DNA from: Pelagomonas calceolata
Taxonomy: Eukaryota
Assembly (NCBI GenBank): GCA_918797485.1
Contig: CAKKNE010000005.1
Location: 4,216,001 to 4,280,000, forward strand
Reading direction: 5' to 3'
DNA length: 64,000 nucleotides
Shown here: positions 406 to 57,869 of the stretch, in pieces
Position numbering within the stretch: the stretch's first letter is position 1
Layout: every line of letters starts with the position of its first letter
Notes under the pieces: generated by a model
Seen by the model: the letters and a program-made list of their open reading frames with translations, nothing else
Databases searched by the model: none
Told to the model about the DNA's origin: nothing
Position numbers and translations under genes: made by a program

Positions 406-432
406 GCTTGCTAGTGTCTTACATACGCTAGC
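406..432 (+). promoter_or_regulatory. Conserved intergenic motif copy 1
   Basis: GCTTGCTAGTGTCTTACATACGCTAGC between divergent genes. Confidence 0.7.
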
Positions 433-483
433 TAGCCGAGCAAAAACAAAAACACAGCGTGAGGATGGGCGAATAGATGCGAA

Positions 484-1260
484 ATGGCGGAGATAAAGCC
501 GTCGTTCCCTTCCTCTCTGCCGCCGCAGCTCGTGATAACTTGGCTGCCGCTGCGCGATATCTCTTCTGCACTGTGCGCGTCCTCTTCCTGGCGCGGTGCT
601 AGTGAGCCGGTCTTTAAGGTCGTCGCGGAACGCAATGGTCTCACGCGCGGCACGGATTCATGGCGAGGTGGCGTGCTGAGGCACCCTACCTGGTCTCGTT
701 CCAAGCCGGCCCGGCAGCAGTACAGATGGCCTGAGTTTACCGGTCCGAGGACGGTCACTAATGAAGTCGCTGAGCGTGATTTCTACTTTGTCGCCAACAG
801 CATTCGGGTACCGCTACACAGGATGGCTCGATTTCGTGTGCAAATGAAGAAAGAGGAATTGAGGACTACGGATGGATGTGGCTTTGCCTTACTCTCGGGC
901 AGCGGCGCAATCAAGCGTGCGTATGTGTGGAACAGCAACGGCAACGATTATACAGGCATTGGCAGCCCTCTTCTTGGAAGAATCGAAACGTTCTCTTTCA
1001 AAAATAAGCGCATCAAAAGTGGCCAGACGCTGCTTGTTAGCGTCTGGAACGTACCGCCCTACCACTTCCACGCGACGCTCGAGCGCGTGGAAGAGGATGG
1101 AAGTCTCTCTGAAATAGCGACAGAACGCGACAGAGCGCGATATTTCAGCGTGGATGATAGTGATGAAGAGGATGGACCTTTCGTCCTGGCTCCATTGGTT
1201 CGTCTGTTTACAGGCTCATCCGCGACGCTGGGCTTGTATGAGCCACTGGCACATGAATAA
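484..1260 (+). CDS. Hypothetical protein with F-box-like N-terminus
   Basis: 258-aa ORF. SLPPQLVITWLPLRDISSALCASSSWR resembles the F-box pattern LP...L...D.....vs..W. Confidence 0.6.
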   Translation: MAEIKPSFPSSLPPQLVITWLPLRDISSALCASSSWRGASEPVFKVVAERNGLTRGTDSWRGGVLRHPTWSRSKPARQQYRWPEFTGPRTVTNEVAERDFYFVANSIRVPLHRMARFRVQMKKEELRTTDGCGFALLSGSGAIKRAYVWNSNGNDYTGIGSPLLGRIETFSFKNKRIKSGQTLLVSVWNVPPYHFHATLERVEEDGSLSEIATERDRARYFSVDDSDEEDGPFVLAPLVRLFTGSSATLGLYEPLAHE

Positions 1261-1272
1261 GAAATACTATTG

Positions 1273-2994
1273 TTATGAATCAACCCCCCAAAGCCGCCCA
1301 ATCTCCGCGCCAACCTCCGCGAACGCCTCCCGCTCCAACAACGAGGCGCGCCAAGCAAGCGTCGCCGGCCGCGGCGCCGCCGCGACCGACCCTGAGAGAG
1401 GCGCCGCGCCGCACGCGTGGGCGCATTCGACGATGGGAAACGCGAAGGCGTCGGCTAGAGAAGGAAACCCCGGCGCCAGATCGCCATTCGCGAGCGTCTC
1501 CTCGACCGTCGCGAGGGCCGCCGCGAGTTCGGCGGTAAGCGCGGTGTCAAGGGGCGCATTACAATCGCGGCACCGCTCCAGTGCTAAGGTTCGTTCGACC
1601 GGAGGCAGCGGCGCCAGCGCGTACTCGATACCGCCCCGTTCCAACAAGCGCCGCGGCCCAACATACAAAGCGTAGAGGCGCTGGAGCACGTCGCCGTCGA
1701 CGGATCGCGCCCAGTGCATCCACCGCTTGATGGAGACTGCCGCGTCCAGGCTATCGCCAAGGCGCCCGTTTGAGAGCTGTGTGGCGACGGCGAGCGCCCC
1801 GGCGACGGCCTCACCACCACCAAGCAACAGAGGCAGCCGCGCGCAGCCGCCGGCGAGGGCGCCGCACGCCGCCAGCGCGTCGGGCGTCGGGGCGAGGCGC
1901 TCGAGCGAGGGCGCGTCGAGCGTCAGGACCGTCACGTTGTCCCCGAGCTCGCGCGCCGCGATTCTGACGGCGAAGCACGTGGCCGCCGCCGCGTCGACGA
2001 CGAGCGTGCGGGCCGTCGTCGACGGCCTCGCCGTAAACTTGGGCGTCCGCGCCACGGCCGCGTCGACGGCCGTGGCAGAGGCGCGGTGCACCGTCGAGTA
2101 CGCCGCGTTGCGGACGTTGCCCCAGGCCTCCAGTACCGGCACCACAAACCTACCAACAACGTTCGGCCGCCAGAAGAGCCGCGTCTGCGCCGCGCCCGCG
2201 TCCAGGACTGGCAAAGCGAGGCACCGCTCGACGTACGCTATTATATTACCGAACCGTTCCTCCTGCAAGGGCGTGCGGAGGAAGTGGTTCTGCGGACATT
2301 TCAGTAATCGCGGCAGCACCGCCGCGTCGGCCGCCGAAAACTCTGCACCGCCCAAGAACGCGCGACCGTCCGCCAGCGCCCCTTCGAGCTCACTCAGATG
2401 TGCCGCGACGCGCTCGAGACATGCTTCGGCTTCAATACCTTCACAAAATGTCCCGTCGAAGATGCGGGTCCACTTGGCCGCGAAGGGCCCCTCTGGCAAA
2501 TCTTGGACGAAGTGCGGCCTCGCATGCAGGGACCGCACGATATGAGCGTCGACGTACTGCCTCGATAACCTTGAAAAGGCGTCGGCGAGCGACAGCTCCC
2601 AGTCGAGCCACGGCGTCTCCAAAGGTTCATTTTGGGGGCCGAACTTGGAATCGATGTAATACGAAATGGCGCCCGACTCGTAGAGTATCAAATCATCATG
2701 ACGCAGGGCGGGCACTTTACAGAGAGGATTGATCTTCTTGTAAGCTTCAGAGCGCTGCTCGCCCCGCAGCAAATTGACTTCCACGAATTTGTAGGAAACA
2801 CCATGCAACTTCAGGTGGATCAACACGCGCCGCGTGCAGGGGCTCGCGACGTTGCCGTACAAGGTCAGTCCTGCTTTCGCTTCGAAGCGTTTTTCGAGCG
2901 CCGCTTCTCTCCGCTCCTTCGCCGTGCGCTTCCTACGAGATGCCCACCAGTGGTACGCCAGCGCCGCGGCCGCCGCCGCCGCGACCTGTTTCAT
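1273..2994 (-). CDS. Glutathione S-transferase family protein, tandem GST domains, N-terminal anchor
   Basis: GST-N motifs SPCTRRV, INPLCKVPAL, LYESGAI and GST-C motif FSAADAAVLP. A second degenerate GST fold follows (PSLADAFAFP). Confidence 0.85.
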   Translation of the reverse strand: MKQVAAAAAAALAYHWWASRRKRTAKERREAALEKRFEAKAGLTLYGNVASPCTRRVLIHLKLHGVSYKFVEVNLLRGEQRSEAYKKINPLCKVPALRHDDLILYESGAISYYIDSKFGPQNEPLETPWLDWELSLADAFSRLSRQYVDAHIVRSLHARPHFVQDLPEGPFAAKWTRIFDGTFCEGIEAEACLERVAAHLSELEGALADGRAFLGGAEFSAADAAVLPRLLKCPQNHFLRTPLQEERFGNIIAYVERCLALPVLDAGAAQTRLFWRPNVVGRFVVPVLEAWGNVRNAAYSTVHRASATAVDAAVARTPKFTARPSTTARTLVVDAAAATCFAVRIAARELGDNVTVLTLDAPSLERLAPTPDALAACGALAGGCARLPLLLGGGEAVAGALAVATQLSNGRLGDSLDAAVSIKRWMHWARSVDGDVLQRLYALYVGPRRLLERGGIEYALAPLPPVERTLALERCRDCNAPLDTALTAELAAALATVEETLANGDLAPGFPSLADAFAFPIVECAHACGAAPLSGSVAAAPRPATLAWRASLLEREAFAEVGAEIGRLWGVDS

Positions 2995-3418
2995 CGCAGG
3001 CGCTGCTGGGCCCGCCAGCGCCGCATATTAAGTGCAAAGATGGCACCGGCGATGAGGACGCCGAGCGCCACGCCGACGAGGAAGATCGGTTCCGCTGGGG
3101 CCGAGAGGACCATTTTTTGGGCAGCAGTTTGTCGTTTGGGCAGCGCGTCGTGACGTGAGGGATGGCTTGAAATTTATGTGAGGCTGCCCCGCACGCTACG
3201 GATCCGTCCGGGGGCCTCCGGATATGTCTCCGAGCGACTGCCTGCGAGTCGCCGCAGGCCTAAACCGGCCAGGTGCAACTTCGTGGGGGTCCTGATCTCA
3301 AAGGAAAACAGAGTCTGCGAGCTGGTAAAAGCTGCCGCACGAGACGCGAGCGCGTCAAGCGGTGCGCGCGCCGCCTCAGGGGCCATCACCGCATCTATAG
3401 CAGCGCCGGGGCAGCGAA

Positions 3419-6400
3419 ATGAAGGGCTACGGCACGCTCGACGCCGACGACGAGGACGGCCGCGTGCCACCGACGACTCTACGCGCGAACAGGCTCTGCT
3501 GGACGGTGGAGACCAACTCAGTAAAGCGGGAGCTGCTGAGCGACGTTTCCGCCCGGTTCTCCCCAGGAACGATCACGGCCCTCGTCGGGCCGAGCGGCGC
3601 GGGCAAGACGTCGCTGCTTATGGCATTGGCCGGGCGCTTGCAAGGCGACCACCGCGGCGCCATCCTGGTGAACGACGTCGCCGCCACGGCGTCGGAGCGG
3701 AGCCGCCTCTCGTCGCTGATGCCCCAGGACGACCGCCTCTTCGAAAGTTTGACGGTCGAGGAGACATTACTGTATGCCGCTCGCTTAAAACTAAGGGTGA
3801 ACCGCGAGGGGCGCGCTTCTCGAGTCCGGTCCGTCCTGAAAGCATTAGGACTGACCGACGTCCACAAAGAATCGGTAAAGAACGTGTCAGGGGGGCAACG
3901 ACGGCGGACCTCCGCCGCGATCGAGTTGCTCTCAAAGCGACCACTCTTACTGCTCGACGAGCCGACGTCGGGTTTAGATTCGTATGCTTCCTACAACCTC
4001 GTGCAACTCCTCAAACAAACGACATACAGAGAAAAAAGGACCACCATCGCCACCGTCCACCAACCCGCGTCACAACTATTAGCATTGTTCGATTCAATAC
4101 TAATACTGGCGCCGGGCGGCCGCCTAGCCTTCGAAGGTTCACCTCAAGAATTGGACGCCTTCTTCGTTGAGCGGAACATGCCTTTACCGACCAACGAGAC
4201 CGCCCCGGATCATGCCATCAACGTCGTGCTGCGAACGCCGGACAAGCGTACCTACCGCTCTCCGAGGAAAGTAACCAGGGAGAGTGGTGAGATGCCTTGC
4301 ATTGAGGACGGTTCCTCCATAAGTACGCAGTATTTGGTGTTGCTACATCGCCAGTGTAAAATCTGGACGAAGGATCAAGATCAAGGCCGACTCATGGTCC
4401 TGATGGTCCTGGCGCAGGCCCTATGGCTCGGGTTGCTCGCAACAGGGATGACGCCCTGCATCTCCAAGGGCAACTTGATACAAGTGTATGCTGGTGCGAT
4501 CCTGATGGCGAGCGCGAACTGGCTCTGCGTGTCTCTACCGTTGGAGCGGCCTGTGGTACTAAGGGAGTATCGAAATGGATCGTATGGTGTTGTAGCGTAT
4601 TTCCTAGCGAGAGTGACGCTGTGTTGCATCGTAGCATTAATTGCGGCTCTCGCGTCGATGGCGGTGTTCTACGTCCTACTGCAGACGAGATGGCGTCCCG
4701 TGAGCGTGCCGGACAAGTGGCTCTGGGCCACCTTTTTACTATCGGCGTGTTCGAACTTCCTCGGGTTATGTGTTGGCTTCCTAGTGGACTCGCCGCTCGA
4801 CGCGCTCGGCGCCATACCTACATTGCAGTTAATAATGATGCAGTCCACGGGCTTCGGGCCGCCCCAGAACCAGATGCAGCCCTACGTCAAGCCGTTGAGG
4901 TATCCCAATTTGTTGCACTGGTCCAATAAAATATTCTTGACGTTGAATTTCCATCACACGAACGAAAAGGGTACTCAGGTACTACAAATGTATGATATAA
5001 GGACGGGCCAGGTCACGGCCTGCTTCCAGGCGTTGTTATTGTGTTTTTTAGTGACACTATTCTTAGCTGGTTGTGCGTGCTACCGCTCTCTAACTAAACA
5101 GAGGAGGACGGGCCGCGAGCGCGCCCCCAAAAAATCTCGGAGCGAGGTCGAACAGGACGCGGCGTCGTCCATAAGGCGGTTGTTCGAAGGAAGTCCTCCT
5201 CCTTCGTCGGACGACGACTATGATCCCGACGATACTCCTGTATCTACGACGAAGCCGCCCGCGATTCACTGTATCAATTTAACAACTTCATATGGAGGCG
5301 GCTCGACTTTAATGGATCTGTCCTGCGAGTTCGAAGGGTCGACGTGCCTCATGGGGCCCTCGGGCGCCGGGAAGACGTCGCTCTTGAACGCGCTGTCGGG
5401 AAGGGCGCAACACAACATCGTGCGAGGTTATGTGACGATAGACGGCGCCGAACCCAGTTCAAGGGTAGTGCAATTGACACCTCAAGAAGATACGTTGCTC
5501 GCCGGCTTGACCGTCGAGCAGACTTTTAGGTATGCTTCATTACTATATAGTGACCGAGACGACGCGGTCGAGCGCGCCGATGCCCTCGTAGATGCTCTGG
5601 GCCTCAAAGCAAGAAGACATCTCGTCGTAGGCAACGCCTTAGCGCCGGGCGGCCTGTCGGGGGGGCAAAGGAAACGTGTCTCGATCGGCATCGACATGCT
5701 GGCCGAGAAGCCAGTCATGTTGGTAGACGAACCGACGACGGGCTTGGATGCGTCCGCCGCGCGCCACGTCGGTCGGATGGTCGTTTCTCTCTCGAAAAAG
5801 TACGCGAGGACGGTGGTCTGCACGCTCCATCAGCCGGCCTGGTCGATCGTCGAAGGCTTCGACCGGGTCGTTCTGCTGTCGCGCGGCCGGTGCTGCTTCG
5901 CGGGGCCGCCCCGTCATTTGCGGGATTTCTTTTCCGCGTTGGGCTTGCAGTGCCCCCCGGCGACGAACCTCGCGGACCACGCGTTGCATGTTCTCTCGTC
6001 TTCTCCGGACGTCGCGGCGCGATGTGCTGATAGGTTACAAACGGTTAAGGATGCTCCCATGGTGCAGCAGCATACTTTACCTAAAGTGTCGCCAATCAGG
6101 CAGGCTTTCATACTGACGAAGCGGACGGCGTCGGTCTACGCCTACTCGCCGGACCAGCTCGGGCTGTGTGTCCACGCGTCGATCATGAATGCATTAGTTG
6201 CGGGTCTAGTATACAGGGCCTGGCCCATGGACCTCTGGATCGGCTTCGGGGCCTGTTTAGGCGGGATGGGCATGTCGATGAGTTGCGCGATGACCTCGAT
6301 ATTGGCGCTGCCTACGGAGCGGCCCTTTGTCGCGCGCGAGTATGCGAACGGGACCTACACGGCGGGGAGCTACTGGTGTGCGCGATGCGTCGTATGTCTT

Positions 6401-6994: not shown

Positions 6995-6999
6995 TGTTG

Positions 7000-7389: not shown

Positions 7390-7586
7390 CGCCGGCGTCG
7401 CTGGGGTTGCTGTAGTTGCTGTAGTTGCTCTTGAGAGCACTTGGTAAGGGCTGGTTTTTTTGAGCTATTTCTCGGTCTTTCGACGCAATGCGCGGCTGCA
7501 GCACTTGAAATAAGACAGCCCTGCGGGCGAATTGATGCGCAGCGACGCCAATACAGCGCGCTGGCTGCAGCTGCACCGCCTCTCAG

Positions 7587-7606
7587 AGTGTCTTACCGCC
7601 GCTAGC
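7587..7606 (+). promoter_or_regulatory. Conserved intergenic motif copy 2 (partial)
   Basis: AGTGTCTTACCGCCGCTAGC between divergent genes. Confidence 0.6.
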
Positions 7607-7873
7607 GTGAGCGGGTTTTCGTCCAGGTATCCGTAGACCACTCGATTGGGCTGTTGGACAATGGTCCGCGCCGACGCCGCAACGTGCGGGCCCAGCGCCT
7701 CAAGACTGTTGTTGCTTGGCCGAACGCGTGCGCACAGCAGAACTGCCAGTCGACAGACGCTCTCGCCGCGTCGTATTGTCCCTCGCCACCGCTGCGGGCA
7801 GCCCCGGCCGCCAGGAAGACCGGCCGCACCACCAATCAATCACAACGACCGGCAGCCCCGGTACCCAGTAAGA

Positions 7874-10982: not shown

Positions 10983-11461
10983 GCGGCGGAATTCATATTT
11001 GGGGAGGCAAGCGAGAGCGCCGCAGGGGGTCGCGTCGACCACGCGGGGGGCTGCCCTCGTCGCTGATATAAGCCTGGGCTTGGGCTGCAAGTCGCCGCCG
11101 CGCGCGCCCCCGGTCGGCAACGTCATTCCGGCTGTGCCAGGGTGTATGGAGCTGTCTTTTGCGAGCTGGTGAAGGCGGCACACGAGTCTTCGTGCGTCGT
11201 CCGATCGATTCGCTAGTAGGATCGCGGCTCGATGAAGCTGGGCTACCAAGGTTTGGGACCGGATAGCACGGCACAACCGCAGAGCTAGGGAATTCTAAGG
11301 CTGCGTAGCATCTCTCCGCAGCGTTTCCTGCTAGCACACGAAGTTTCAGCTTCGTGCAGCGAGTTTAAGCCTGGTTTCACCAGCATCTAGCATCATCTAC
11401 AACATAGAGGCATAGCCGCTGCCTCCTGTGCTTCTCTCGCATCCACAGCTGTAGACGCATC

Positions 11462-16499: not shown

Positions 16500-16707
16500 T
16501 TTCTATGAGCTTTGGCGCGTCGTCGGCGTTTTACGCGCTGCTTTTTAATGGCTGCCTTTTTGAGATGCCTTTTTTTTATGCGTACGGAGCTGTTGCTGAC
16601 ACAGGTTCGCGTCGCAACTCGTTTTTACCAGTGATGGCAATCACGTACCGCACGCGTGCCTTGGCTCACTGCAGCGCGCCGCGCAAAAGCTCCGCGCCAA
16701 AGATGGA

Positions 16708-16735
16708 GCTAGCGGCATGTAAGACACTAGCAAGC
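16708..16735 (-). promoter_or_regulatory. Conserved intergenic motif copy 3
   Basis: + strand GCTAGCGGCATGTAAGACACTAGCAAGC, 208 bp upstream of the NAP1 ATG. Confidence 0.75.
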
Positions 16736-16923: not shown

Positions 16924-17577
16924 TCACGACTGCGAGCAGCCCCCCCGCAGCGCCGCGCACGGGTTCTTCCGCAGCGACCCCCCGCCTCCTAAATGCGGGT
17001 ACCACGTCTGCAGGATGGCCTTCATCCGCTCGTGTGCGCTGTCCAGATCGTCGTTCACGAGGTAAGCGTCGAAGGGCGCCGGGCCGGCCCGCGGCCGTGC
17101 GTAGTCCATCTCGGATTGCGCGTTCGTCATGCGCTTCTGGATCTTCTCCTCCGTCTCCGTGCCGCGGCCCCGCAACCGCGCTTCCAGAGCTTCCATGGAA
17201 GGTGCTTCCACCCACAGACACTTCGCGCCGAGGTTCGCTTCTTTCACACTACGCACTCCTTGACAGTCGATGTCTAAGACACAAATCTTGCCAGCCTTCT
17301 GGACGTCCTCCACGCTGGCTTTGGACGTGCCGTAGTAGTTGCCGTGGACGTGGGCACTTTCCAGAAATTTGCCCTGTTCTATCTCGGCCTTCATCGTATC
17401 GACCTCGGCGAAGTGGTAGTGGACGCCGTCCTCCTCGCCCGGTCTCGGCGCACGCGTCGTATGGCTCACCGAAAAGCCAAATGCTTCCGGATCCCAGGCC
17501 ATCAGCTTCGCGATCAACGTGCCCTTGCCGGCGCCCGAGCAGCCGGCGACCACCAGAGGCGGGAAGTAGGAGGCCAT
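16924..17577 (-). CDS. gmk: Guanylate kinase
   Basis: P-loop GCSGAGKGT, SVSHTTRAPRPGEEDGVHYHF, GNYYGTS, VLDIDCQG, LEARLRGRGTET. Confidence 0.95.
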   Translation of the reverse strand: MASYFPPLVVAGCSGAGKGTLIAKLMAWDPEAFGFSVSHTTRAPRPGEEDGVHYHFAEVDTMKAEIEQGKFLESAHVHGNYYGTSKASVEDVQKAGKICVLDIDCQGVRSVKEANLGAKCLWVEAPSMEALEARLRGRGTETEEKIQKRMTNAQSEMDYARPRAGPAPFDAYLVNDDLDSAHERMKAILQTWYPHLGGGGSLRKNPCAALRGGCSQS

Positions 17578-18148
17578 TCTCATATGCTTGCTCCTTGCGT
17601 TTGCGTAGGAGAGTGTGCGCCGGAGCGCGGCGGCGCGCGACGTCGTTGCTTGCCTTTTTTGGCAAGTTTGGGCTGAGCAAGTTTGGCTGCTCCCAGCACT
17701 CAAACGACGGCTGGACGGTGCCGAGCGCTTGCGCAGCGATTTATGCGCGTCGAGGCGCTGTCGCTGAGTCCGCGCGTTGCACGGATTGCGGCTCACGAGT
17801 TGGACGCCGATTTTTGGCTAAATTGTGTGTAAAACCCGCGACGGCCACCGCCAAACCTAGGCGACGGACGCCGTTGCATGTGAAGCATCGTTCCAGGCTT
17901 CGGAACAAAGGCTCGGAGCAGTTGCGAATTAAGCAGTTTCCCTCCAGGCAATCTCCGCAGGTCGCGGCGTGCTGTTGCTCGCGCCGTATTCAGATACTTT
18001 TTGGTTGAAAGATCGAGCATCGTCAGCTGCTTGACGCCATCGTTCACGAATTTTCCGCAGCGGTGCCCTCCGGGAAAGGAGCAGCCCTCTTTGGGTTCCA
18101 ACCCCAGCTCGCTCTGTTTCACTGCGGCGCGGGCCGCGCGCAGAAACA

Positions 18149-19633: not shown

Positions 19634-19660
19634 GTTTGCTAGTGCCTTAATGCCGCTAGT
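19634..19660 (+). promoter_or_regulatory. Conserved intergenic motif copy 4
   Basis: GTTTGCTAGTGCCTTAATGCCGCTAGT between divergent genes. Confidence 0.65.
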
Positions 19661-19857
19661 AAAAACTCGAGCGCGCATCGAGCGCTGAAAACACCCTGCG
19701 AAGGGCCGTTTTCCACAGCCTTGTGCTCCCGCGAGCCTCACACCGGTCTACACGAAGCCACAAAACCGAAAAAGCAGCCGTAGGTCAGCGCGTGACTAAA
19801 ACACAAAAAGAGCTACCAGCTCTCTGCTGCAAAAACCACCGCGACAGCGTAAAAAAG

Positions 19858-34889: not shown

Positions 34890-35074
34890 CGTCACCGGCG
34901 CTGCTCACTCCGCTTGTGCTTGGTTGGCACGCTGCCCCCGTCCTACGAGTCGCAGTGCGCTTGATGGTCCTTGCTCCGCTTGCATGGGCACGGCACGCTG
35001 CTCACCAATCGCACTGCCTGCCAGTTGGCACGGCCGGCTGCCCCGTAATACAAAAAGCAGCGCTCTGAATAATA

Positions 35075-35101
35075 GCTAGCGGCCTTGTAAGACACTAGCA
35101 G
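35075..35101 (-). promoter_or_regulatory. Conserved intergenic motif copy 5
   Basis: + strand GCTAGCGGCCTTGTAAGACACTAGCAG between divergent genes. Confidence 0.75.
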
Positions 35102-35288
35102 TAAATGCAACAAGCGGCGCGCCTCATTTGAAGCCGAACCTGTGCACATATAAGCGCACGTGCGCGAGGGGGGTCCAATTTATCGCAAACACTGCGGCTG
35201 CGCCCTGTGTGTTGCGGCGGTGTGCCCAATAGCAGCCAGGCGCCGCCCCCCCCCGATCGACAGCAGCTGCGAGCCACACGCCGCATTG

Positions 35289-40896: not shown

Positions 40897-41012
40897 GTTG
40901 GGCAGCCCTAGTCGTGGTGCGGAGGCATGGCAGGTCCCGGCAGCCTAATTGATGATCACATTTACGAGCGATACCCAGCCGTACGTCTAGTTCACGCGTC
41001 CGCGCACCGCTC

Positions 41013-41038
41013 CTTGCTAGTATCTTACAGCCGCTAGC
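41013..41038 (+). promoter_or_regulatory. Conserved intergenic motif copy 6
   Basis: CTTGCTAGTATCTTACAGCCGCTAGC between divergent genes. Confidence 0.75.
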
Positions 41039-41233
41039 TAAATCGAGCGCGTTGCACGCCCGGGCAGCCCGGGCAGCCGAACTAGTGGCCAGCTCGCACG
41101 CCGGGACGGCCCAAAGGCTGCCAGCGACCCACAGACGCCGCCGCGGCGCGGCTCTCCACGCCGCCGCCGCAACACCCAATTATACCTCTGATACGTCGAG
41201 CGGGCAGCCGCCGCGCGCGCGTCAGAAGCAGCC

Positions 41234-44293: not shown

Positions 44294-44493
44294 CTTGCTG
44301 ATGCTGGTAGTCGTTACGCCGGCCGGCGGTGCCGTATTTTATGCTTGGTGCTAGCTGAAAATGCCGCAAAGTGAAGGGTGTTGTGAGCTCGAATTTTCCT
44401 TCGTGTGTTTTTCGAGGCGTGGCACGGTTCTTGCGGTCCTATACATGCCTCATAACGACGTGGCTGCGAGGCGAAGGACGCGTGCTGGAGCTA

Positions 44494-44520
44494 GCTAGCG
44501 GATGTAAGGCACTAGCAAGC
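44494..44520 (-). promoter_or_regulatory. Conserved intergenic motif copy 7
   Basis: + strand GCTAGCGGATGTAAGGCACTAGCAAGC between divergent genes. Confidence 0.75.
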
Positions 44521-44624: not shown

Positions 44625-46174
44625 ATGCGCGCATTGCTACTGCTCGGCACAGCCTCGGCAGCAGCAGCCCTCTCGAACGCCACGCTACACGCCATCGCCG
44701 CGGACGCTATTTGGCCGGAAGTAGCGACAGGATGCATTTTGAGAGCAGACTTCCTTAACCACGTAGTAGAACTAGAAACGAGCACGGGCGAGACGCGGAC
44801 GGTGCTCTCGAAGGAGAGCCCAATCCCACCGGTCATCCCGGGGCCGCCGCAGCTCTGTGCTCTCAAGAACGACCATGATAATGATGGAAAACAGAGGTCT
44901 GTGTTAACCATAGCTACTGATCTGAAGTATTTGAGACCGTGGTCGCATTTCCTGTGGAACAAGCTGTGCTACTGTAAGCGGGAGGGCCTGGATTTCTTAC
45001 TGTTTCTGGGCAACGTCGACACGGCCCACGCGCCGAATCCGAAATGCCTGTCCGGTAAAGCAGGAAACCACTGGATTAAGGCCGTCGCGATCCACGCTGC
45101 CTTATCTCGCGCGGGCCAGGACGAAGTTTTAGTGCTAGATACGGACGCCATCTTCCGCAGGGAGTCCTTCTCAAGGCACGGCCTGGCGTCCTGTTATTTC
45201 GGGGTCATGGAGGACGCCCAGGCTTCTGTGGCGGCCGGCGCCGAGCATTATCAAGTCTTCGTCAATGCCGCCGTGTTGCTCGTAAGAGAGACTCCGTGGA
45301 CGCGGGCTTTGTTAAGACTGTGGTGGCGCGACCGGTGCGGCGAGAAGGACCAGCTCATTCTGTGGCACTCGCTGCTGACGCTCTGGAATAAAGATTCAAA
45401 TCTGAACTACGACGGCGAATTGTTAGCTTATACATCTAGAGACTACAAGAACAAGAGCTCGACGTCTACATATAAACACGCTAGGCGGGTGGTCACGTTC
45501 TGTGTGGAAATCAACCAGTGCGACGGGTGCACAATTCTTCGCTAAGTCATTTCTCGGCGATGACGCGGCCGTCCTGGCTCGGTCGAGCGGCGAGGAACCG
45601 GCATCGCCACGCCATCGAGCAGGCGTCGCGTCGATGGCGTGGAGGTCCGCGCGACGATTCAGCACGAACGTGCCGTAAAATTTTGATTTCCACACAGGTC
45701 ACGTTCGACTACGCGCGGCAATTGCGGCCCGCGCACTTCGTGAAGTCGCCGGTGGCGCGTTCGTGGCCGGCGTCCTACTTGAGAGTGTTCCACGCCGTCG
45801 CCGCGACTCGGTGACGGCGCGGCGGCCTCGGTGCGTCGCGATTGTCCCTATTCCGCACAGGTGCCCACCCGATCTACCACCTCGCAGCCGACAGTCTATT
45901 AGATTTCCCGGACTTCGCGCTCCTGCCGCAGACGGCGCTGCCGCCTCCGAAACGGTGCCCTGGGCCCGGGCTGCCGTCCTTGCGGAGCAACGCCGCTCGG
46001 CGGAAGAAGGGCGCGCGCGGCGCCGGGCCGGCGTCGTTCCTCGCGCACACGAAGAACCGGCCGGCCTTCGACTGCTGTCCTGCTGGTAACGTCGACGCGG
46101 CCGCGCCGTGCGTCGCCGTGAACCTCGAGCGGTCGACGCACCGCAAGGGCGAGTCGACGCCGCACCGTCGTTAG
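44625..46174 (+). CDS. Glycosyltransferase, GT34 (GMA12/MNN10)-like, 3 exons (44625-45491, 45698-45758, 45861-46174), ~413 aa
   Basis: Signal peptide, NKLCYC, HWIK, VLVLDTDAIF (DxD), VNAAVLLVR.T.W, DQ. Confidence 0.8.
45492..45705 (+). mobile_element. Intact introner: non-autonomous TIR element 45500-45697 with 8-bp TSD, spliced as intron 45492-45697
   Basis: TSD GTCACGTT at 45492-45499 and 45698-45705. Perfect TIRs CTGTGTGGAAATCAA and TTGATTTCCACACAG. Internal hairpin ACGCCATCGA...TCGATGGCGT. Confidence 0.95.
45759..45860 (+). other. GT-AG intron, 102 nt (probably old introner)
   Basis: GTTCGTGG...CCTATTCCGCACAG|GT. The spliced junction VAR|AHPIYHL matches the uninterrupted paralogous copy at 48463. 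Confidence 0.75.
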
Positions 46175-46277: not shown

Positions 46278-47993
46278 CTACTCGAGCTCGTCCAGCGGCT
46301 CGACGCGGGGCCGCTTCGGCGGCGACGGCGAGTTGCTCAGGTCGAGGGGGTCCGCGCTGGAGCCGGAGCCGGCGAGGACGAGCTTCGCCGTCGGCGGCGC
46401 GGCGCCGAAGTAGCGCGAGAGCGGCACGGGCGGCGGCGTGACCTTGGCCTTCCGCTTCCCGCTTCGGGATTTTTTCGGCTTCATCTTGGCGCCGGGCCAC
46501 TCGGTCGCCGGCGCGTCGTACTTGCGGTTCGCCTCGCTCGCGTTGTACCAAATCACGTGGCCCTCTTCCAGCGCCGGCCGCGTCGCCGTGTCGTCGCCGA
46601 GCAGATACGCGTCGACCTCGTTCCAGCGCGCGCGCAGGGCCTTCAAACCCTCGGTGGCGACCATGCCCATGATTTGTAGCGTCGCGACCGGGTCAGAGAC
46701 GTGGGCCTCGCTCTCCAAACACTTCTCCGCGGCCGCGTGCTGGTAGGGGGTGACGAACGGGTCCTTGACGACCGCATCATAATCGCAATTGACCATCTGC
46801 CCCATCATGGGCATGTTGGTCGCGATCGGGCACGGCGCCTTGGTGGACCTGTTCCGGTGCTGGCCCTGCGAGTTCATGCCCAGCGCGACGGACAGGACGG
46901 CGTGGAAGTTGCGGTAGCGCTCGGCGAGCCCGAGGTGGTCCAGCAAATCCTTTTCCGGGAACGAGCCGAAGGACCAAATGCGCTTGTCGTCGTGGCCGGG
47001 CGTCTTCATGAGCTCGCGGACGCGCGGCTCGCCGAAGGGCTTCGCCTGGCCCTCGTTCAGGATCACCTCGACGTCGCCCTTGCCGAGGTCCGGTCGCAGC
47101 CGCCCGACGACGGCGCCGAGCTGGTTCGCCTCATACGCGACCACTAGCCCCTTGGGCTGGTTCTCCGCGCGCATCCGCTTCGTCAGACTCCACTGATCGG
47201 CCCGCTCGATGTCGAAGGACAGTACGTCCTCGCCGCGGATCTTGGCCGCCAGCAGCTCCCTGTAGTGCGCCTTCGCGGCGGCCTGGGGATCGGTGTCCTC
47301 GGGGAGCGGTAAGATCGTCTTGAGGATGTCCGAGTGGCCGAAGACGACCTCGAACAGCCTCTTGACGCGATCGTAGCCCGGGTCCACGCCCTTCATGATC
47401 GTCTTGAGGAGCGGCGGCGGCGTGGACGCATGACTCCGCTCATGGCCCCCCTTGCCCGACCTCCCCGACGCGCCCGACTTGCTCTTACGGACGCCGCCAA
47501 AGACGGGCTGCCCTAGAAACAGCTCCGGGAAGAGGTTGTAGTTGTCGCAGGTCGTCGCCACGCCGTACCTAGATACGCCGTCCCCCTTCCGAGGGTGTGT
47601 TCCCGACACACGTGCACGACAGTCCTCCACCCAGCCCGCGGGATAATCCTCGCCCGTGCGTATTCCGACGCGGTTCTTGCATTCGCACGCGGTATGGCGG
47701 CCCTGCACGCAGTCCGCGGAGGAATGAAGCCCGGCGATTCCGGCGCCTGCGGCTAGTAGAAACTGGATCAACTTCTCCGACGAGCCGCCCGAGGCCTCGT
47801 CACCAAAGATGATGGGTCTGATGGACGCCAACCGAGAACAGCCGGCGTCGATGTCGAGCGTCGACGCCGCGGCGTCGACGACGCGGTAGGATGCGGTGTC
47901 GGCGCCGCGGCTGACGAAGAGCGCCTTCACGCTCGAGCCGAGCGGCGCGGCGGCGCGCCCGCGCGCCCGCGCGGCGAGTCGCCGTAGCAGCAT
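46278..47993 (-). CDS. Hypothetical protein, possible DEDD/DnaQ-like 3'-5' exonuclease with organellar presequence
   Basis: 571-aa intronless ORF. Arg/Ala-rich N-terminus, VLSFDIE (Exo I-like), IWSFGSFPEKDLL (Exo II-like), AHVSDPVATLQI (Exo III-like). Confidence 0.55.
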   Translation of the reverse strand: MLLRRLAARARGRAAAPLGSSVKALFVSRGADTASYRVVDAAASTLDIDAGCSRLASIRPIIFGDEASGGSSEKLIQFLLAAGAGIAGLHSSADCVQGRHTACECKNRVGIRTGEDYPAGWVEDCRARVSGTHPRKGDGVSRYGVATTCDNYNLFPELFLGQPVFGGVRKSKSGASGRSGKGGHERSHASTPPPLLKTIMKGVDPGYDRVKRLFEVVFGHSDILKTILPLPEDTDPQAAAKAHYRELLAAKIRGEDVLSFDIERADQWSLTKRMRAENQPKGLVVAYEANQLGAVVGRLRPDLGKGDVEVILNEGQAKPFGEPRVRELMKTPGHDDKRIWSFGSFPEKDLLDHLGLAERYRNFHAVLSVALGMNSQGQHRNRSTKAPCPIATNMPMMGQMVNCDYDAVVKDPFVTPYQHAAAEKCLESEAHVSDPVATLQIMGMVATEGLKALRARWNEVDAYLLGDDTATRPALEEGHVIWYNASEANRKYDAPATEWPGAKMKPKKSRSGKRKAKVTPPPVPLSRYFGAAPPTAKLVLAGSGSSADPLDLSNSPSPPKRPRVEPLDELE

Positions 47994-48462
47994 GCCGCGC
48001 GCTGCGTGAAATAGCCATGGTTAAAGGTGATGATGAAAATCCAAGTTTTGTGGCGGCGGAGCTGCGTCTTTTGTGGCGCGCGGCGGTCTCGCAGCGTGGC
48101 GCTGCCGTCTCGCGCCACTGCCAGCGCTACATCACGCTAGCGTTTGTGTGAGGCGAGCGGCGGTCGAGGGACGGCAGTCGATTGCGATGCGCCGCGAGGG
48201 CCAATGAAGACGAGATTTCGAGGTGACGCTTATGACGCTGCAGGCGCACTGTGGGTCTGATCTTAGCCTCGGCGGGCTCGGAGATCTCCCGGTTGTGGCG
48301 TTCTTTGAGAAGCAAACTGCCACAAAAGGGCACAGCACCATGCAGGCAACATCGGCCCAGGGAGGATACGTATGCGCCGGGATTGAGAGGCCTATCGAGT
48401 CTTCGAGCACTCCGCCCTACTCCTAGCAGAGTCGTAGCGAGGGGCGACGCCACACTAGCTAT

Positions 48463-49693: not shown

Positions 49694-49940
49694 TGCGATT
49701 TTGTTATCGTGTGCGGTTTGTGCAGCCGCGTTTGCCAGCAATGCTTGCTTGCTTCGCCGCTGTCCTGCTGCGCGACGCGCTGGGAGGCGCTGCTGCTCGC
49801 AGTGGGTTTTTGGCTTTTTGCGCTTCTTTTGCCAACACTATTCTGTCGTACGTTTTCGTGAGGTTAATAATCGATGCGTGCGCGCACGCGTACGCGCGTA
49901 ATAGCTTCACGCAGCCAGCAAGACGACCGCGCAGCTGTAC

Positions 49941-49964
49941 GCTAGTGTCTTACATGCCGCTAGC
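49941..49964 (+). promoter_or_regulatory. Conserved intergenic motif copy 8
   Basis: GCTAGTGTCTTACATGCCGCTAGC between divergent genes. Confidence 0.75.
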
Positions 49965-50163
49965 TGACCCACCACTCGACCAAAAAGCCGCGTAGAGCTG
50001 CATCACCGCGGTCGCTGCGCATCGAACACGGGCAGCACAGCTGCCACATCGCGTGGTCGCAGCGCCAGCCGTTCCGCGCATTCCTGCGGCATCAAAAAAC
50101 GCAGCATAGCAGCCTGCCAACATTATTGCCCTCACGACCGCAAAGGTCGCCGGCGAGCGCAGC

Positions 50164-52332
50164 ATGGCTGAGGACGCTGAAACCGTCAGCGAGCTCCTCG
50201 CCGCGTGGGCCGCGACAAAACCGGACGCGCCTCTGTTTTCGTGGCTCGAGGACAAGAACCAGAGCGTGAAGGCGACGCTCTCATTAACTTATGGTGACGT
50301 CGAGAAGGCCGCCGCACGGACGGCACACAAGCTGCGACACAAGGAAGGTGTGAAAGAAGGCGCCCGCTGCCTCCTGGTCTACGAGCCGGGCCTGGCGTAT
50401 ATAGTTGCGTTCCTGGGGGTGTCGCGGGCTGGAGGAATACCAGTACCGGTCTTCCCCCCGGAACCAAGGAGAAGGAAGACGAGCGAGTTGCATGCCTTCT
50501 GCCAAATTGCCGAGAGTTGCGGCGCGGCCTTCGCTCTTACATCTTCTTTATATGATTTCGCGAAGAAGACAACTGCTTTATCGAAGTTGGTCGCGGGCGG
50601 CGACGCGACGTGGCCGTCGTCCCTCAAGTGGGTCGTATGTGATATTGACAAGTCTACGCCTGGCTTGGCAGCGGCGCCCGCGTCGCAGGAAGTGGCCTTC
50701 CTGCAGTTCACGTCGGGATCCACGAGCGCTCCGAAGGGCGTCGTGATCACGCATTCTTCCCTAAAGCACAACCTCGACCTCATCGTCGACGACCTGAAAG
50801 CTGATGAGACAACAATCAACGTCAGCTGGCTGCCCCAGTACCACGACATGGGTTTGATAGGAAGCTACCTGGGCACGCTGCGGTGCGGCGGCCGCGGCTA
50901 CTACGCGTCCCCGCTCAAATTTGTGGCTCGGCCCGCGTCGTGGTTGGAAGCTATATCGCAGGTCCGGGGCACGCACACGCAGGCGCCGAATTTTGCGTAT
51001 GCCCTCGTGACGCGGAAGCCGCCCTCGCAAACCTTGGATCTGTCCTGCCTTAAACATGCGATCAACGCGGCCGAGCCCGTCGACGCGGCGGTAATCGACG
51101 CCTTCGAGCGCTTCTTTGGCGAGAAGCATGCACTGAGGAAAGGTGTCGTCTTCCCGACCTACGGCCTCGCGGAGAGCACGGTTTTGGTGTGTGGCAATGG
51201 TGTTATGAGGTGCAGGATAGATGCGGACGCGCTGCGGGAGCGGCGCTGCGTTTCTTCTGAAGAGGGCGTCGCGCTCGTGGGGTGCGGCGCGCCGCGTTCC
51301 GATCGCGGCGTCTCCATCAAGATCGTGCGGATTGATGACGACGATCAAGGCACAGCGACTCTGGGTGAGAATGAGGTCGGCGAGATCTGGGTCCGATCGC
51401 CAAGCGTGGCCCGGGGCTACTGGGGCGTGGAAGATCCTAGTTTCGGCGCGTCCATCGACGGTGAGAGCGGCTTCCTGCGGACGGGCGACGAGGGCTTCTT
51501 TCGCGAGGGTGAGTTGTATGTGTGCGGCCGCCGCAAGGACCTTATCATACTAAGAGGCAAGAACCACTACCCCCAGGATTTAGAGCGGTGCGCCGAGCGG
51601 GCCGCGCCTCAATTAAAACCCGGCTGCGTCGCCGCGTTCTCCGTCGATGACAAAGGCGAGGAACGACTCGTGGTGATCGGCGAGGTCCGCGACGACGCTA
51701 GTACAAGAAAGAAGCGTTCCCAGGACGGCGCCTACGCGGCGCTTTGTGAACAAGTCGCTTCCAGTATAGCACACGAGCACGGGGCTTCGGTGGACACGCT
51801 GTGCATTGTCGCCCCGCGGACGGTCCCGAAGACGACGTCGGGCAAGATCGCTAGGCGTCGGTGTCGCGACGCGTTCCTCGCTGACAAGCTGGACGTGGCG
51901 TATCGAAGTTCTGATGGTCCTACGACGGCGGTCGTCGCGGAGCAGCCCACTTCGAGTTATGAGCACAGTGGAGTGGTTGCGGACGTCGCGCGCGCGCTCG
52001 GGAAGGTATCTAGAAGGGACGCATCATCATTGCCGTCGAAGCGACCCCTGGCGGATTTGGGTGTCGACTCGCTCGACCTGGCTCAATTCAAGGGCGTCCT
52101 GGAGGGCGAGTTTGGATTACAAGGGCTGCCGGACGATTTGTTATTTCGGGACGACTGCACGTTAGCAGCTCTTGGTGCTTTAGTTGAACGTGGCGGGGCG
52201 TTCACGGAGGAGGCCTACGCGCGCTGTGTGCGCGACTTGGACGTCGAGGGCGGCGGCGCGAAGAAGAAGGGGGACTGGGTCGTGGAGAACTGCGCGTGTT
52301 GTCTGGTTTGCTGCCCGGGTAAGTTAAGGTAG
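50164..52332 (+). CDS. Fatty acyl-AMP ligase (FAAL) fused to an acyl carrier protein domain
   Basis: AFLQFTSGSTSAPKGV, SWLPQYHDMGLIG, YGLAE, LRTGDEGF, GRRKDLII.RGKNHYPQDLE, PKTTSGK. ACP motif LGVDSL. Cys-rich C-terminus. Confidence 0.9.
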   Translation: MAEDAETVSELLAAWAATKPDAPLFSWLEDKNQSVKATLSLTYGDVEKAAARTAHKLRHKEGVKEGARCLLVYEPGLAYIVAFLGVSRAGGIPVPVFPPEPRRRKTSELHAFCQIAESCGAAFALTSSLYDFAKKTTALSKLVAGGDATWPSSLKWVVCDIDKSTPGLAAAPASQEVAFLQFTSGSTSAPKGVVITHSSLKHNLDLIVDDLKADETTINVSWLPQYHDMGLIGSYLGTLRCGGRGYYASPLKFVARPASWLEAISQVRGTHTQAPNFAYALVTRKPPSQTLDLSCLKHAINAAEPVDAAVIDAFERFFGEKHALRKGVVFPTYGLAESTVLVCGNGVMRCRIDADALRERRCVSSEEGVALVGCGAPRSDRGVSIKIVRIDDDDQGTATLGENEVGEIWVRSPSVARGYWGVEDPSFGASIDGESGFLRTGDEGFFREGELYVCGRRKDLIILRGKNHYPQDLERCAERAAPQLKPGCVAAFSVDDKGEERLVVIGEVRDDASTRKKRSQDGAYAALCEQVASSIAHEHGASVDTLCIVAPRTVPKTTSGKIARRRCRDAFLADKLDVAYRSSDGPTTAVVAEQPTSSYEHSGVVADVARALGKVSRRDASSLPSKRPLADLGVDSLDLAQFKGVLEGEFGLQGLPDDLLFRDDCTLAALGALVERGGAFTEEAYARCVRDLDVEGGGAKKKGDWVVENCACCLVCCPGKLR

Positions 52333-52361
52333 TGGCCCCGTTCTTTGTTTGTACTTCTGTT

Positions 52362-52383
52362 CGGTGCTAGGACTAGTGGGCGG
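52362..52383 (+). repeat. 22-bp 3'-flank motif copy B
   Basis: CGGTGCTAGGACTAGTGGGCGG about 30 nt after the FAAL stop. Confidence 0.6.
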
Positions 52384-52388
52384 CGCCC

Positions 52389-52472
52389 CTGGGGGGGGAA
52401 CTCACGTGCACGCCATCGACGCGACGAGTAGTGCAAACAGGTTCTTTTTAGGGCTCGGCCTAGGCGGGGTAC
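52389..52472 (-). mobile_element. Probable terminal/3'UTR intron, introner remnant
   Basis: Carries CGCGTCGATGGCGTG and ends TTCCCCCCCCAG. A donor at 52472 would change the end of the DUF2358 protein to QMGAAH*. Donor position is uncertain. Confidence 0.45.
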
Positions 52473-53158: not shown

Positions 53159-53227
53159 GGGAGCGCCGGTTTGAGCTACTATGAGCCCACCGCGGCCAGA
53201 AATCTGAGCTTCTATAACTCCGTCTTT

Positions 53228-53248
53228 CTAGCGGCCTAAGACACTAGC
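53228..53248 (-). promoter_or_regulatory. Conserved intergenic motif copy 9 (short spacer)
   Basis: + strand CTAGCGGCCTAAGACACTAGC upstream of the DUF2358 gene. Confidence 0.65.
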
Positions 53249-53380
53249 GTTCGCGGCCAGTTTCACCGAGGTGGACACGGACGAAGGTCCATGCGTCCCC
53301 CGCCTTCAATCACCGTATCATTTTACATTCTAGTTACACAATTTCGCGCGGCCGAACGAATAACGTTCCGTATCGTCTGT

Positions 53381-55116: not shown

Positions 55117-55229
55117 GCTGCCAGGCGCAAGCAGGGCTCGGCCACAATCCGTATATGTGCTATGGCTGAGAGATGCACGAGCAGCGCTACGCAAACCAAA
55201 GCTACTCGGCGGCGGCCGGCCAGGAGTGA

Positions 55230-55257
55230 GCTAGCGGTCTGTAAGACACTAGCAAGC
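55230..55257 (-). promoter_or_regulatory. Conserved intergenic motif copy 10
   Basis: + strand GCTAGCGGTCTGTAAGACACTAGCAAGC. Confidence 0.75.
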
Positions 55258-56111: not shown

Positions 56112-56138
56112 GCTTGCTAGTGTTACAGGCCCTCTAGC
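56112..56138 (+). promoter_or_regulatory. Conserved intergenic motif copy 11 (degenerate)
   Basis: GCTTGCTAGTGTTACAGGCCCTCTAGC. Confidence 0.55.
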
Positions 56139-56180
56139 GCTTAGCTGAAAGCCATGCGCACGGACTACAACAAAGACAAG

Positions 56181-57674
56181 TTACCGCCGCCACCGAAACC
56201 CAAAAGCAATCGCCTCGAGCGACGCCGTCAAGGTCGCCTTAAAGTTCCGCCACGTGAGCGCGAGCGGCAGCAGCGGGTCGTCGTCGGCGCCGTCGTCCAG
56301 GCCGGCGAGCTGATCCGCTGCGGCGGCCGCCGCCGCCGCGTCGCCGCGCGTCCGCGCCCGGAACTTCGCCGCGTCGCGCACCAGCGCCGCTGCGACCAAC
56401 GCGAAGCCGAACCCTAGAATTTTGGGCGCCACTTCCACGACCAAGGCGCACGTCGCACAGGCGAGGGCCGCCGTCGCCGACGCGAGCGGCACGCGCGCGC
56501 AGGCCTTGCGCGCCTGCTTCGAGTACGCGTCGGCCACCGCCGCCGTGCGGCCCTTGGCGGCCACGGACTCGGTTGCCCGCGCGATGCCGTACTCCGCCGC
56601 CGTCAGGTAGTAGGCGGCCTGCGCCGCGGCCACGGCGGAGGCCACTGGGGCAGCTAAAGCAAAGCTGCCTGAATACGTCATGAACGCCGCCGCGAAGGGC
56701 GCCGGTAATATGGACCGGGCGAACCCGACCCAGAGCGCGGTGTCCGCCTTCGCCTCGTCCTGGGACAGCTCCACGACGGAGCGCCAGGTGTAGCCCACGT
56801 TTTCACTCGTAGCAAAGCGCCTCCTCCCGAGCGCTTGCGCCTTGTCGCACCGCCTCCGCGAATCCTGCTCCGCCACCACCGCAACAGACGCCGCCAGGAT
56901 GGACACCGCGGGGCAGACCAATGAGACAAGTGTGCGACTCCGCACGGCCGCGGATCGATCGACGAACAACGGCTGCGTCGCCGGCACCTCCATCGTCGGC
57001 GTGTTGTATTTCACGAGCGGCGCCCAGCGTGGCGCTTCGTCGTAATACTCGGGGATCTGCTCGACGGCCGTCGCGGGCTCGACGAGTTCTAGTAGAGCGG
57101 GCGCCGACGAGCTGAGAGCTGTCGCCGTCGCTCCCAGTACGACACATACGGGCAGCACCGACTTGACGCGCTCGGCGCCGGCCAGGATCTCCTCGGCCTC
57201 GGCCGCGGCGCGCACGGCGACAGCTGAGACCTCGTGCGCGTTCGCCGCGGCGCGCAGCGCGCCCCACTCCTTGTAGCCGCCGATCGCCGCCGTGGCCGCG
57301 GCGCCGGCCGCGACCGCCGCGGCCGGCGCCGCCGCCGTGAGCGTCGCGCCGGCCGCGACGGCCGTCGCCGCGCCCAGCGCGACCTTCTCTCTCCTTTCGA
57401 GCGCGCCTCGCCGGTCGCTGCTGAAGTCGACGCGGTCCATGTCCCGCGTGACGCGCGCGACGGCGCGGTCGATGGCCTGGGCCTCTCGATCTTTTCGCTT
57501 GACGCTCTTCGCCTCTTCGACGGCCGCTCGGAGCGACTGCGGCGCGTCACTGGCGGCACTCGCGGTCGCTCTCCGCCGCACCGAGGTCCTGGCCACCGCG
57601 CGGTGCGGCCCGGGCGGTGTCGTGAGAGCTGAAGCGCTGACTACCAGGAGCAGTAGGGCATGCCACGCCACCAT
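56181..57674 (-). CDS. Hypothetical Ala-rich membrane protein, plastid-targeted
   Basis: MVAWHALLLLVVSASA|LTTP presequence, several hydrophobic segments, internal semi-repeat. Confidence 0.7.
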   Translation of the reverse strand: MVAWHALLLLVVSASALTTPPGPHRAVARTSVRRRATASAASDAPQSLRAAVEEAKSVKRKDREAQAIDRAVARVTRDMDRVDFSSDRRGALERREKVALGAATAVAAGATLTAAAPAAAVAAGAAATAAIGGYKEWGALRAAANAHEVSAVAVRAAAEAEEILAGAERVKSVLPVCVVLGATATALSSSAPALLELVEPATAVEQIPEYYDEAPRWAPLVKYNTPTMEVPATQPLFVDRSAAVRSRTLVSLVCPAVSILAASVAVVAEQDSRRRCDKAQALGRRRFATSENVGYTWRSVVELSQDEAKADTALWVGFARSILPAPFAAAFMTYSGSFALAAPVASAVAAAQAAYYLTAAEYGIARATESVAAKGRTAAVADAYSKQARKACARVPLASATAALACATCALVVEVAPKILGFGFALVAAALVRDAAKFRARTRGDAAAAAAAADQLAGLDDGADDDPLLPLALTWRNFKATLTASLEAIAFGFRWRR

Positions 57675-57841
57675 CTTCACCCTGTCGTGTTGCCACCCCT
57701 GTCGTGTTGGCCCCGCAGGGCTATTCGATATACCAGTCTTCGCCGGAGGTCCTTCTGCTGGCTCTGAACTCTCGTTTGAACCACGTCTCACCACCGCTGG
57801 ACCACTACGTAGCGTGTACGGCGGCTCGAGCCAGACTGCTT

Positions 57842-57869
57842 GCTAGCGTCGCGTAACACACTAGCAAGC
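57842..57869 (-). promoter_or_regulatory. Conserved intergenic motif copy 12
   Basis: + strand GCTAGCGTCGCGTAACACACTAGCAAGC between divergent genes. Confidence 0.65.

Follow-up and report, generated by a model that had tools for sequence, protein, structure and literature searches.

We analyzed 64,000 nucleotides of the genome of Pelagomonas calceolata (GenBank assembly GCA_918797485.1, contig CAKKNE010000005.1, positions 4,216,001 to 4,280,000 of the forward strand), hereafter the window, a gene-dense and intron-poor stretch with 64% GC. Distributed through its gaps are 12 copies of a bipartite word of about 28 bases with CTAG in its arms. The guanylate kinase encoded here has pelagophyte proteins as its nearest named relatives (66-70% identity). 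An earlier note on this DNA had read the word as a general promoter element, specific to its lineage and built from two half-sites. That proposal is supported by the restriction of the word to promoter gaps and by its unrelated target genes, and the ATG avoidance and CG step described below link the word to transcription start and possibly to a nucleosome. Judged from its sequence and surroundings, the word is a real and apparently undescribed Pelagomonas promoter element that is unusually long and common, would act like the site of a general regulatory factor and would bound the transcript leader.

Structure and census of the word

The word consists of GCTTGCTAGTGTCTTAC, a gap of 0-3 bases, and then GCCGCTAGCT. 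Searches were carried out on a sequence set of 364,591 bases in all, made up of the window and 120 metagenome loci; the scan of metagenome contigs had yielded at least 121 loci, from which L012, a duplicate of L011, was removed. A gapped matrix, retrained mainly on copies other than the search seeds, was applied to the pooled set at a cut-off of 13 bits and found 159 sites (12 in the window and 147 in the metagenome loci, with three ortholog pairs counted as separate sites), compared with 0, 2 and 0 sites in three Markov controls. At a threshold of 10 bits the window still returned exactly the 12 copies listed in the earlier note, each at the position given there, and no thirteenth (Table 1). 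A strict two-part pattern matched five times in the window and never in 100 shuffles. Copies occur once per 5.3 kb in the window and once per 8.8 kb in the unselected loci (25 copies in 218,769 bases).

The CTAG arms are separated by 16, 17, 18 or 19 bases in 11, 40, 97 and 8 of 156 copies, respectively, and the middle between them is conserved and asymmetric. In 36 unselected copies almost no variation is seen in the TAGT, the C and the CT of the right arm, and the information sums to 34.7 bits (uncorrected). The right arm reads GCTAGC in 87% of the 124 seed copies. The earlier description of inverted GCTAG/CTAGC arms around a conserved core needs two corrections in the window: no left CTAG is present in the copy at 7587, and the core is shortened in the one at 56112.

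The edges of the word are sharp. Information drops to background within 5 bases outside the core on each side (124 copies), and at 4-25 bases from the word both flanks have an excess of short T runs. No target-site duplication was detected at lengths of 2-9 among 144 boundary pairs each in 124 copies, the best values being 18% for 2-mers and at most 2% for lengths of 4 or more. With such edges and no duplication, the idea of a domesticated transposon end, in the ordinary sense, was not upheld. An origin from a transposon or repeat may still apply, because 12 of the 159 copies extend into a shared second box (see below). A Helitron 3′ end, in which a terminal CTAG is followed by a target T, was considered and is not supported: among 124 copies the base after the right CTAG is C in 87% but T in only 3%, and on the other strand it is C in 30 of 36.

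Placement relative to genes

For gene calling we used a codon model that had been trained on the window, masking the word. Coding DNA makes up 69% of bases, yet a single copy out of 159 meets a predicted coding segment, and only at the edge of that segment. All 12 window copies lie in non-coding gaps, eight of them divergent, four same-strand and none convergent, in agreement with the earlier note, which had also rightly described the flanking genes as functionally unrelated (they fall into unrelated gene families by Pfam). A copy is present in 8 of the 11 divergent gaps of the window; those at 2993-3421, 17575-18165 and 47979-48462 have none. Among unselected gaps (search-seed gaps omitted, window included), the word is missing from all 59 convergent gaps and present in 18 of 38 divergent and 11 of 58 same-strand ones, several of these same-strand gaps being introns with introner ends.

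Gene starts are found about equally on the two sides of the word (77 GCTT sides and 67 CCGCTAG sides). The distance from its center to the ATG has a median of 193 bases on the GCTT side (range 65-536, n = 73) and 210 on the CCGCTAG side (range 107-523, n = 63), with clusters near 120 and 200 and only a mild side bias, short distances occurring on 23 of 71 versus 9 of 59 sides (p = 0.026). Six distances of about 200 bp claimed for the window were measured at 207, 196, 184, 194, 199 and 198 bases, at most one base off; the remaining window copies lie 50-243 bases from their ATGs. A spacing of about 200 bp to the ATG toward which the word points is thus no more than the middle of a wide spread, and gene starts occur to both sides of the word. 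The claim that the word marks most promoters is likewise overstated, its share being about half to two thirds (18 of 38 unselected divergent gaps). In short, the word serves about half or somewhat more of promoters, in both directions and at broad spacing. A classical core promoter element (TATA, INR or INR+FPR) would be directional, which the word is not, as it serves gene starts on both sides; a fixed distance to the transcription start may be hinted at indirectly by the ATG avoidance that sets in at its edge.

A motif finder run on 27 gaps without the word returned an introner end sequence and no promoter word. A second candidate promoter word, GATCCTA(C/G)(T/G)AG or near variants of it, was noted in gaps lacking the main word (Table 1); its 7-mer core is present in 6 of the 27 gaps versus 0.7 expected, and its enrichment is not significant in the window alone. 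Weak CTAG-bracketed variants, with arms 14-16 bases apart, occur at L053:~11080, L043:~7860 and L082:~3830 in gaps that were scored as lacking the word, so the true coverage may be higher.

ATG avoidance between the word and the start codon

Sense-strand ATG is scarce from the edge of the word onward. On 126 gene-start sides each of the 11 bins between the word and the start codon holds 0.29-0.59 of the expected number, including the first 10-20 bases from the edge, whereas past the word, on the same sides, the ratio reaches 0.73 in the first 30 bases and 0.98-1.20 further away. At matched distances from the start codon, ATG occupies 45 of 10,784 positions before the word and 122 of 10,131 beyond it (p = 1.3e-10). 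Out-of-frame ATGs taken alone stand at 0.28-0.42 of expectation. A test that uses no gene calls, on 318 sides at 2-60 bases, gave 115 outward ATGs versus 197 expected, and 216 CATs versus 212. Compared with the other triplets (64 in all), ATG shows the strongest depletion in three of four bands; CAT is not depleted, and no ATG depletion was seen on 40 gene-end sides.

Of the 159 copies, 44 contain an ATG of their own, on either strand or on both, and the word therefore likely lies outside transcripts. The simplest reading of this sequence pattern is that the word would form the 5′ limit of transcript leaders on each strand. The published protein set gives a 5′ untranslated region of length 0 for nearly all genes and is uninformative on leaders.

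A step in CG content

On gene-start sides, CG in non-coding DNA runs at 0.05-0.07 at 130-160 bases from the edge of the word and at 0.15 at 170-190. The best step lies 161 bases from the edge (0.059 to 0.136, z = 8.3) and is found on both sides of the word; 200 jittered anchors gave a maximum of 5.5, and the best step anchored on the ATG gave 2.3. The pattern recurs on 121 sides without a gene call. Coding DNA inside 165 bases is likewise poor in synonymous CG (0.67 versus 0.92 in the first 30 bases of genes), and CG is above expectation in nearly all loci. The value of 161 equals 147 + 14, as would be expected if a first nucleosome were succeeded by a CG-rich linker. P. calceolata has an annotated gene of DNMT5 type (PMC9481584, supplement rows), and DNMT5 has been linked to linker methylation in Aureococcus, a relative of P. 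calceolata (PMC9998398).

Other banding is seen at shorter and longer range. An AT-rich band at 56-84 bases and an A- and CA-rich band on the sense strand at 125-165 bases are both followed by CGC-rich DNA, and TT peaks at 71-75 bases from the edge. Introns as an explanation of this banding were unsupported by enriched words. On the GCTT side, CG at about 236 bases exceeds the 95th percentile of the jitter and stays below the control maximum, and a 10-base period in CG gives at most a weak signal (6.6 times the median power, without a formal control).

Conservation and a second box

The word is kept in three of four ortholog pairs; of the two pairs that were unselected for the site on both sides, one kept it and one lost it. 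In the former (L014/L027), 25 of 29 bases of the word are kept, while identity is 54% for the flanks and 61% for fourfold sites. The window copy at 41012..41039 is retained in its ortholog L056 by alignment. DNA identity is 82-85% for the L056 and L014/L027 alignments.

In 12 of the 159 copies a second box of about 25 bp, similar to TAAACGCGGGAGCCCTGGAAGCCG, occurs on the CCGCTAG side, on the same strand and within about 30 bases; it was not seen on the GCTT side or 100 bases further out, and none of the 12 window copies has a clear one. Of 33 sides that look toward a gene end, 8 have the box, versus 2 of 67 that look toward a gene start (p = 0.002, and p = 0.005 and 0.018 at looser thresholds), with a consensus that was built from the same copies, though blind to side. 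A matrix count gave 4 of 33 versus 2 of 67 (p = 0.09), two boxes there being wrongly assigned to a neighboring second copy. Word and box together make up a unit of 65-80 bases with a similar linker in these 12 copies, a likeness that may point to descent from a repeat of that length. The other 147 copies are without a shared flank, and no far terminal repeat was seen. Paired copies of the word, 55-105 bases apart, occur at L071:699-791, L080:457-540 and L039:299-431, and in L071 and L080 a second box lies between the two.

Distribution beyond the window

Proteins encoded at the metagenome loci range from identical to those of P. calceolata, through others that cluster with them, to diverged, and the word therefore spans P. 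calceolata and sister lineages. Prokaryote genomes gave 7 matches in 596 billion bases, which is the chance level (two inside a Planctomycete gene and five in marine bins). Alga-like genes stand beside the word in at least three marine prokaryote bins (L001:2147-2169, L006:354-376 and L007:5001-5023), and these contigs are likely chimeric or contaminated. Viral contigs held no strict match and six relaxed ones, in contexts unlike those of the alga. The second box was not found in viruses, and phage records held two weak partial matches.

Table 1. Positions of the word and of other features, in the window unless a locus is named; distances are in bases
Feature	Position	Strand	Bits	Context
Word	406..433	+	39.5	Divergent gap; 50 to ATG at 484, ~100 to minus-strand gene
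Word without left CTAG	7580..7607	+	23.1	Divergent gap, DUF1805 gene / EF-hand gene (Pfam)
Word	16707..16735	-	44.3	Same-strand gap; 207 to NCKAP1-family ATG, behind guanylate kinase stop
Word	19634..19661	+	33.3	Divergent gap, fatty acid hydroxylase / U-box gene; ATGs at 98 and 196
Word	35074..35103	-	37.1	Divergent gap, ABC transporter / helicase; ATGs at 184 and 185
Word	41012..41039	+	37.9	Divergent gap, acyltransferase / MORN gene; ATGs at 115 and 194
Word	44493..44520	-	37.1	Divergent gap; ATGs at 199 and 104
Word	49937..49965	+	39.1	Divergent gap; ATGs at 243 and 198
Word, shortest spacer	53226..53252	-	29.7	Same-strand gap; 67 to first ATG of DUF2358 gene
Word	55229..55257	-	41.7	Same-strand gap; 112 to ATG at 55116
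Weak copy of word	56112..56139	+	18.6	Same-strand gap; 225 to ATG at 55886 of small minus-strand open reading frame, adjoining upstream stop
Word, outer arms near-symmetric	57841..57869	-	39.9	Divergent gap; ATGs at 166 and 178
GATCCTA(C/G)(T/G)AG-type word	11213-11223	-
GATCCTA(C/G)(T/G)AG-type word	~53952	+
GATCCTA(C/G)(T/G)AG-type word	L011:5204
GATCCTA(C/G)(T/G)AG-type word	L040:4901
GATCCTA(C/G)(T/G)AG-type word	L064:1288-1298
GATCCTA(C/G)(T/G)AG-type word	L069:4729
Repeats resembling introner elements	45500-45700, 61921-62003, 62373-62408			Common to several loci
Other repeats	52357-52399, 39948-39978			Common to several loci
Protein of 2,892 residues	26211-34889	-		Long repeat-rich region, C-type lectin domain and ABC transporter; adjoins second ABC transporter gene
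ARAGORN tRNA-Arg call	51225-51316			Inside AMP-binding enzyme gene; probably false call

With respect to the repeats in Table 1, introner elements are reported for P. calceolata in the accessible portion of the genome paper's supplement. The tRNA scan (ARAGORN) made a single call, far from any copy of the word.

Discussion

From these sequence patterns we consider it probable that the 28-bp word is the binding site of a general promoter-organizing protein or complex, that RNA polymerase II starts near either edge, and that the next ~160 bases hold the first nucleosome. In such an arrangement the factor or complex would bind the word itself. Transcription would begin no more than some tens of bases from each edge, since the ATG-poor zone can be read as a 5′ leader. 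Some 160 bases past the edge would be wrapped in the first nucleosome, as 147 bases plus a short T-rich gap, and a CG-rich linker of the kind that DNMT5 methylates would follow. In the 12 copies that have it, the second box may block firing toward the 3′ end of the neighboring gene, as its position suggests.

A number of observations weigh against this reading. Most of the copies (124 of 159) were retrieved through a consensus match and are thus selected by it, and genes and their starts were called by our own model, with 4 of 5 tested window starts agreeing with the published P. calceolata protein set (the NCKAP1-family start next to copy 16707..16735 and both starts at copy 41012..41039 agree with it; the fifth had no match in the portion of the set covered). 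The CG-poor zone is absent on gene-end sides, so the word is not a plain symmetric barrier. No nucleosome-scale period phased to the word rises clearly above the jitter control, CG autocorrelation has no peak near 170, a second CG peak near 340-360 is absent, and transcription could instead start in the A- and CA-rich band. Roughly half of the unselected divergent gaps have no copy, yet they show an ATG-poor stretch of similar length, ~200 bases (32 sides); the word is therefore not required for a promoter. In the unselected pair L040 and L098 the word was lost and replaced (17 of 29 bases), and L040 has a GATCCTA(C/G)(T/G)AG-type word where L098 has the main one. The two selected ortholog pairs kept the word, but 42-47% of flank windows are kept equally well. 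Finally, every step of the mechanism is drawn from sequence.

A different use of the same protein-bound site is less likely. Here the site would act at a distance by opening a wide region, and the main starts would lie in the A- and CA-rich bands ~60-85 and 130-160 bases out; the CG step would then fall at the start site or where the first nucleosome has its upstream edge, and scanning or minor upstream starts would account for the scarcity of ATG. The two bands that each precede CGC-rich DNA, the TT peak and the clustering of ATG distances near 120 and 200 all agree with this, and so does the 11% of intergenic DNA given in the available part of the genome paper's supplement, which is compatible with short annotated leaders. 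Against it, ATG avoidance is flat up to the edge of the word and does not fade with distance, and genes whose coding DNA starts within 130 bases are still CG-depleted to ~160, so the position of the step is independent of that of the gene start.

It is also conceivable, although unlikely in our view, that the word itself is the core promoter, with RNA polymerase II recruited both ways through a phage-promoter-like site, a lineage-specific complex replacing the TBP/TFIIB route and the add-on box shutting one direction. The published gene table (PMC9481584, supplementary file 4) has rows for chromosomes 1-5 and the start of chromosome 6, or ~14,600 of 16,667 genes, and within these it has no row for TBP, polymerase II TFIIB or TFIIA; it does list BRF1, TFIIF, TFIIE beta, TFIIH subunits and several TAFs. 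Further supplements, which may not carry the full annotation, gave no gene rows for TBP or TFIIB terms. As for proteins that might read the word, the same table has no row for RFX (whose X-box the word resembles), BED-finger or THAP, and at least 17 AP2-domain genes, whose products are candidate readers as a lead only.

By our own arithmetic, the information in the site is about twice that needed to single out some thousands of places (~35 versus ~13-14 bits), an excess that suggests several proteins or an origin by copying. We tentatively regard as possible an origin of the word from a repeat, with function acquired later, and such an origin is compatible with a bound promoter site. Quite unlikely, on the other hand, is a relic without function, left by a small transposon or short repeat with an insertion preference for open promoter DNA. 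Copying would explain the excess information, and the 65-80-base unit common to 12 copies and the three loci with two copies close together are in keeping with it. However, no target-site duplication was seen at any tested boundary and information is at background within 5 bases of the core, convergent gaps are free of the word, the word is better kept than its flanks in L014/L027, and both the ATG avoidance and the CG step are anchored on it.

We judge it very unlikely that the word is a site for replication origins (ORC) or chromosome architecture and lies in promoters by coincidence. Such a site would also be intergenic, long, bipartite and direction-neutral, and ORC1, ORC2 and ORC5 are annotated in P. 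calceolata, but the density of the word in the window and in the unselected loci exceeds that of yeast origins, and the flanking signals are confined to gene-start sides. A role at the RNA level, whether as a small RNA gene, as a hairpin or as a signal for 5′-end processing, is extremely unlikely: the arms can pair, with a mean DNA hairpin energy of -3.6 versus -1.7 kcal/mol in shuffles, but the hairpin is weak, an Rfam search of the window and of a long copy gave no match, both strands serve genes alike, and spacer bases vary freely while arm bases with no pairing need are fixed.

Close parallels to a bound, two-way promoter site are found in yeast. Abf1, Reb1 and Rap1 sites are likewise restricted to promoters, occur in either orientation and serve unrelated and divergent genes, and they share with the word short flanking T tracts and what may be a link to a fixed nucleosome-sized distance, the Abf1 site being bipartite as well. 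The Pelagomonas word differs in being much longer (~28 bases, ~35 bits uncorrected) and is not known to resemble them in sequence; moreover, one word covers about half of promoter gaps, and the ATG-poor leader begins at its edge rather than some way downstream. The animal sites of ZNF143/Staf, THAP11, DREF, BEAF-32 and M1BP (the last three of Drosophila) are also long conserved words found at thousands of promoters and at head-to-head genes, and differ in sequence and lineage. The DREF and THAP domains derive from transposases, which provides a precedent for a domesticated end.

Among stramenopiles, oomycetes have a long promoter element, INR+FPR, a directional core promoter motif of 16-19 bases and TCATT type that overlaps the start site in 10-15% of promoters; by comparison, the Pelagomonas word is two-way, CTAG-based and more frequent, and pelagophytes are not mentioned in the accessible part of that paper (PMC3599244). 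In Toxoplasma, according to the portions available of two reports (PMC6631176, PMC13734140), AP2XI-5 binds GCTAGC, the sequence of the right arm, as a single 6-mer ~84 bases upstream in 12% of promoters and in one cell-cycle phase. P. calceolata also has AP2-domain genes, whereas its word has paired arms and a fixed middle, and AP2 binding to it is a candidate by analogy. DNMT5 linker methylation in Aureococcus, Micromonas and Emiliania, as far as the accessible text describes it (PMC9998398), offers a likeness in that a related alga is included, a DNMT5-type gene is shared and CG here peaks one nucleosome length from the word; it differs in that no periodic CG signal was found along genes here and no anchoring motif is mentioned there.

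No description of the word was found in the literature, including by a search with its letters, which brought up one unrelated yeast paper, subscription papers being outside the scope of the search. The terms "motif" and "promoter" are absent from the accessible main text of the P. calceolata genome paper, from the main text of a pelagophyte pangenome preprint and from a 2026 physiology paper, and a Hi-C preprint, in its accessible part, names P. calceolata without any motif.

Conclusions

Extrapolated to the whole P. calceolata genome of about 32 Mb, the word would mark some thousands of promoters (3,700-6,000). It could serve to flag Pelagomonas DNA within prokaryote bins, and it offers a handle for finding the factor, for mapping start sites and for building a compact two-way promoter for genetic tools. 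It also brings two questions within reach of experiment, namely how the first nucleosome is anchored in algae whose linkers are methylated by DNMT5 and how promoter direction is chosen in very compact genomes, and the excess of information in the word raises the question of how so long a site arises and spreads.

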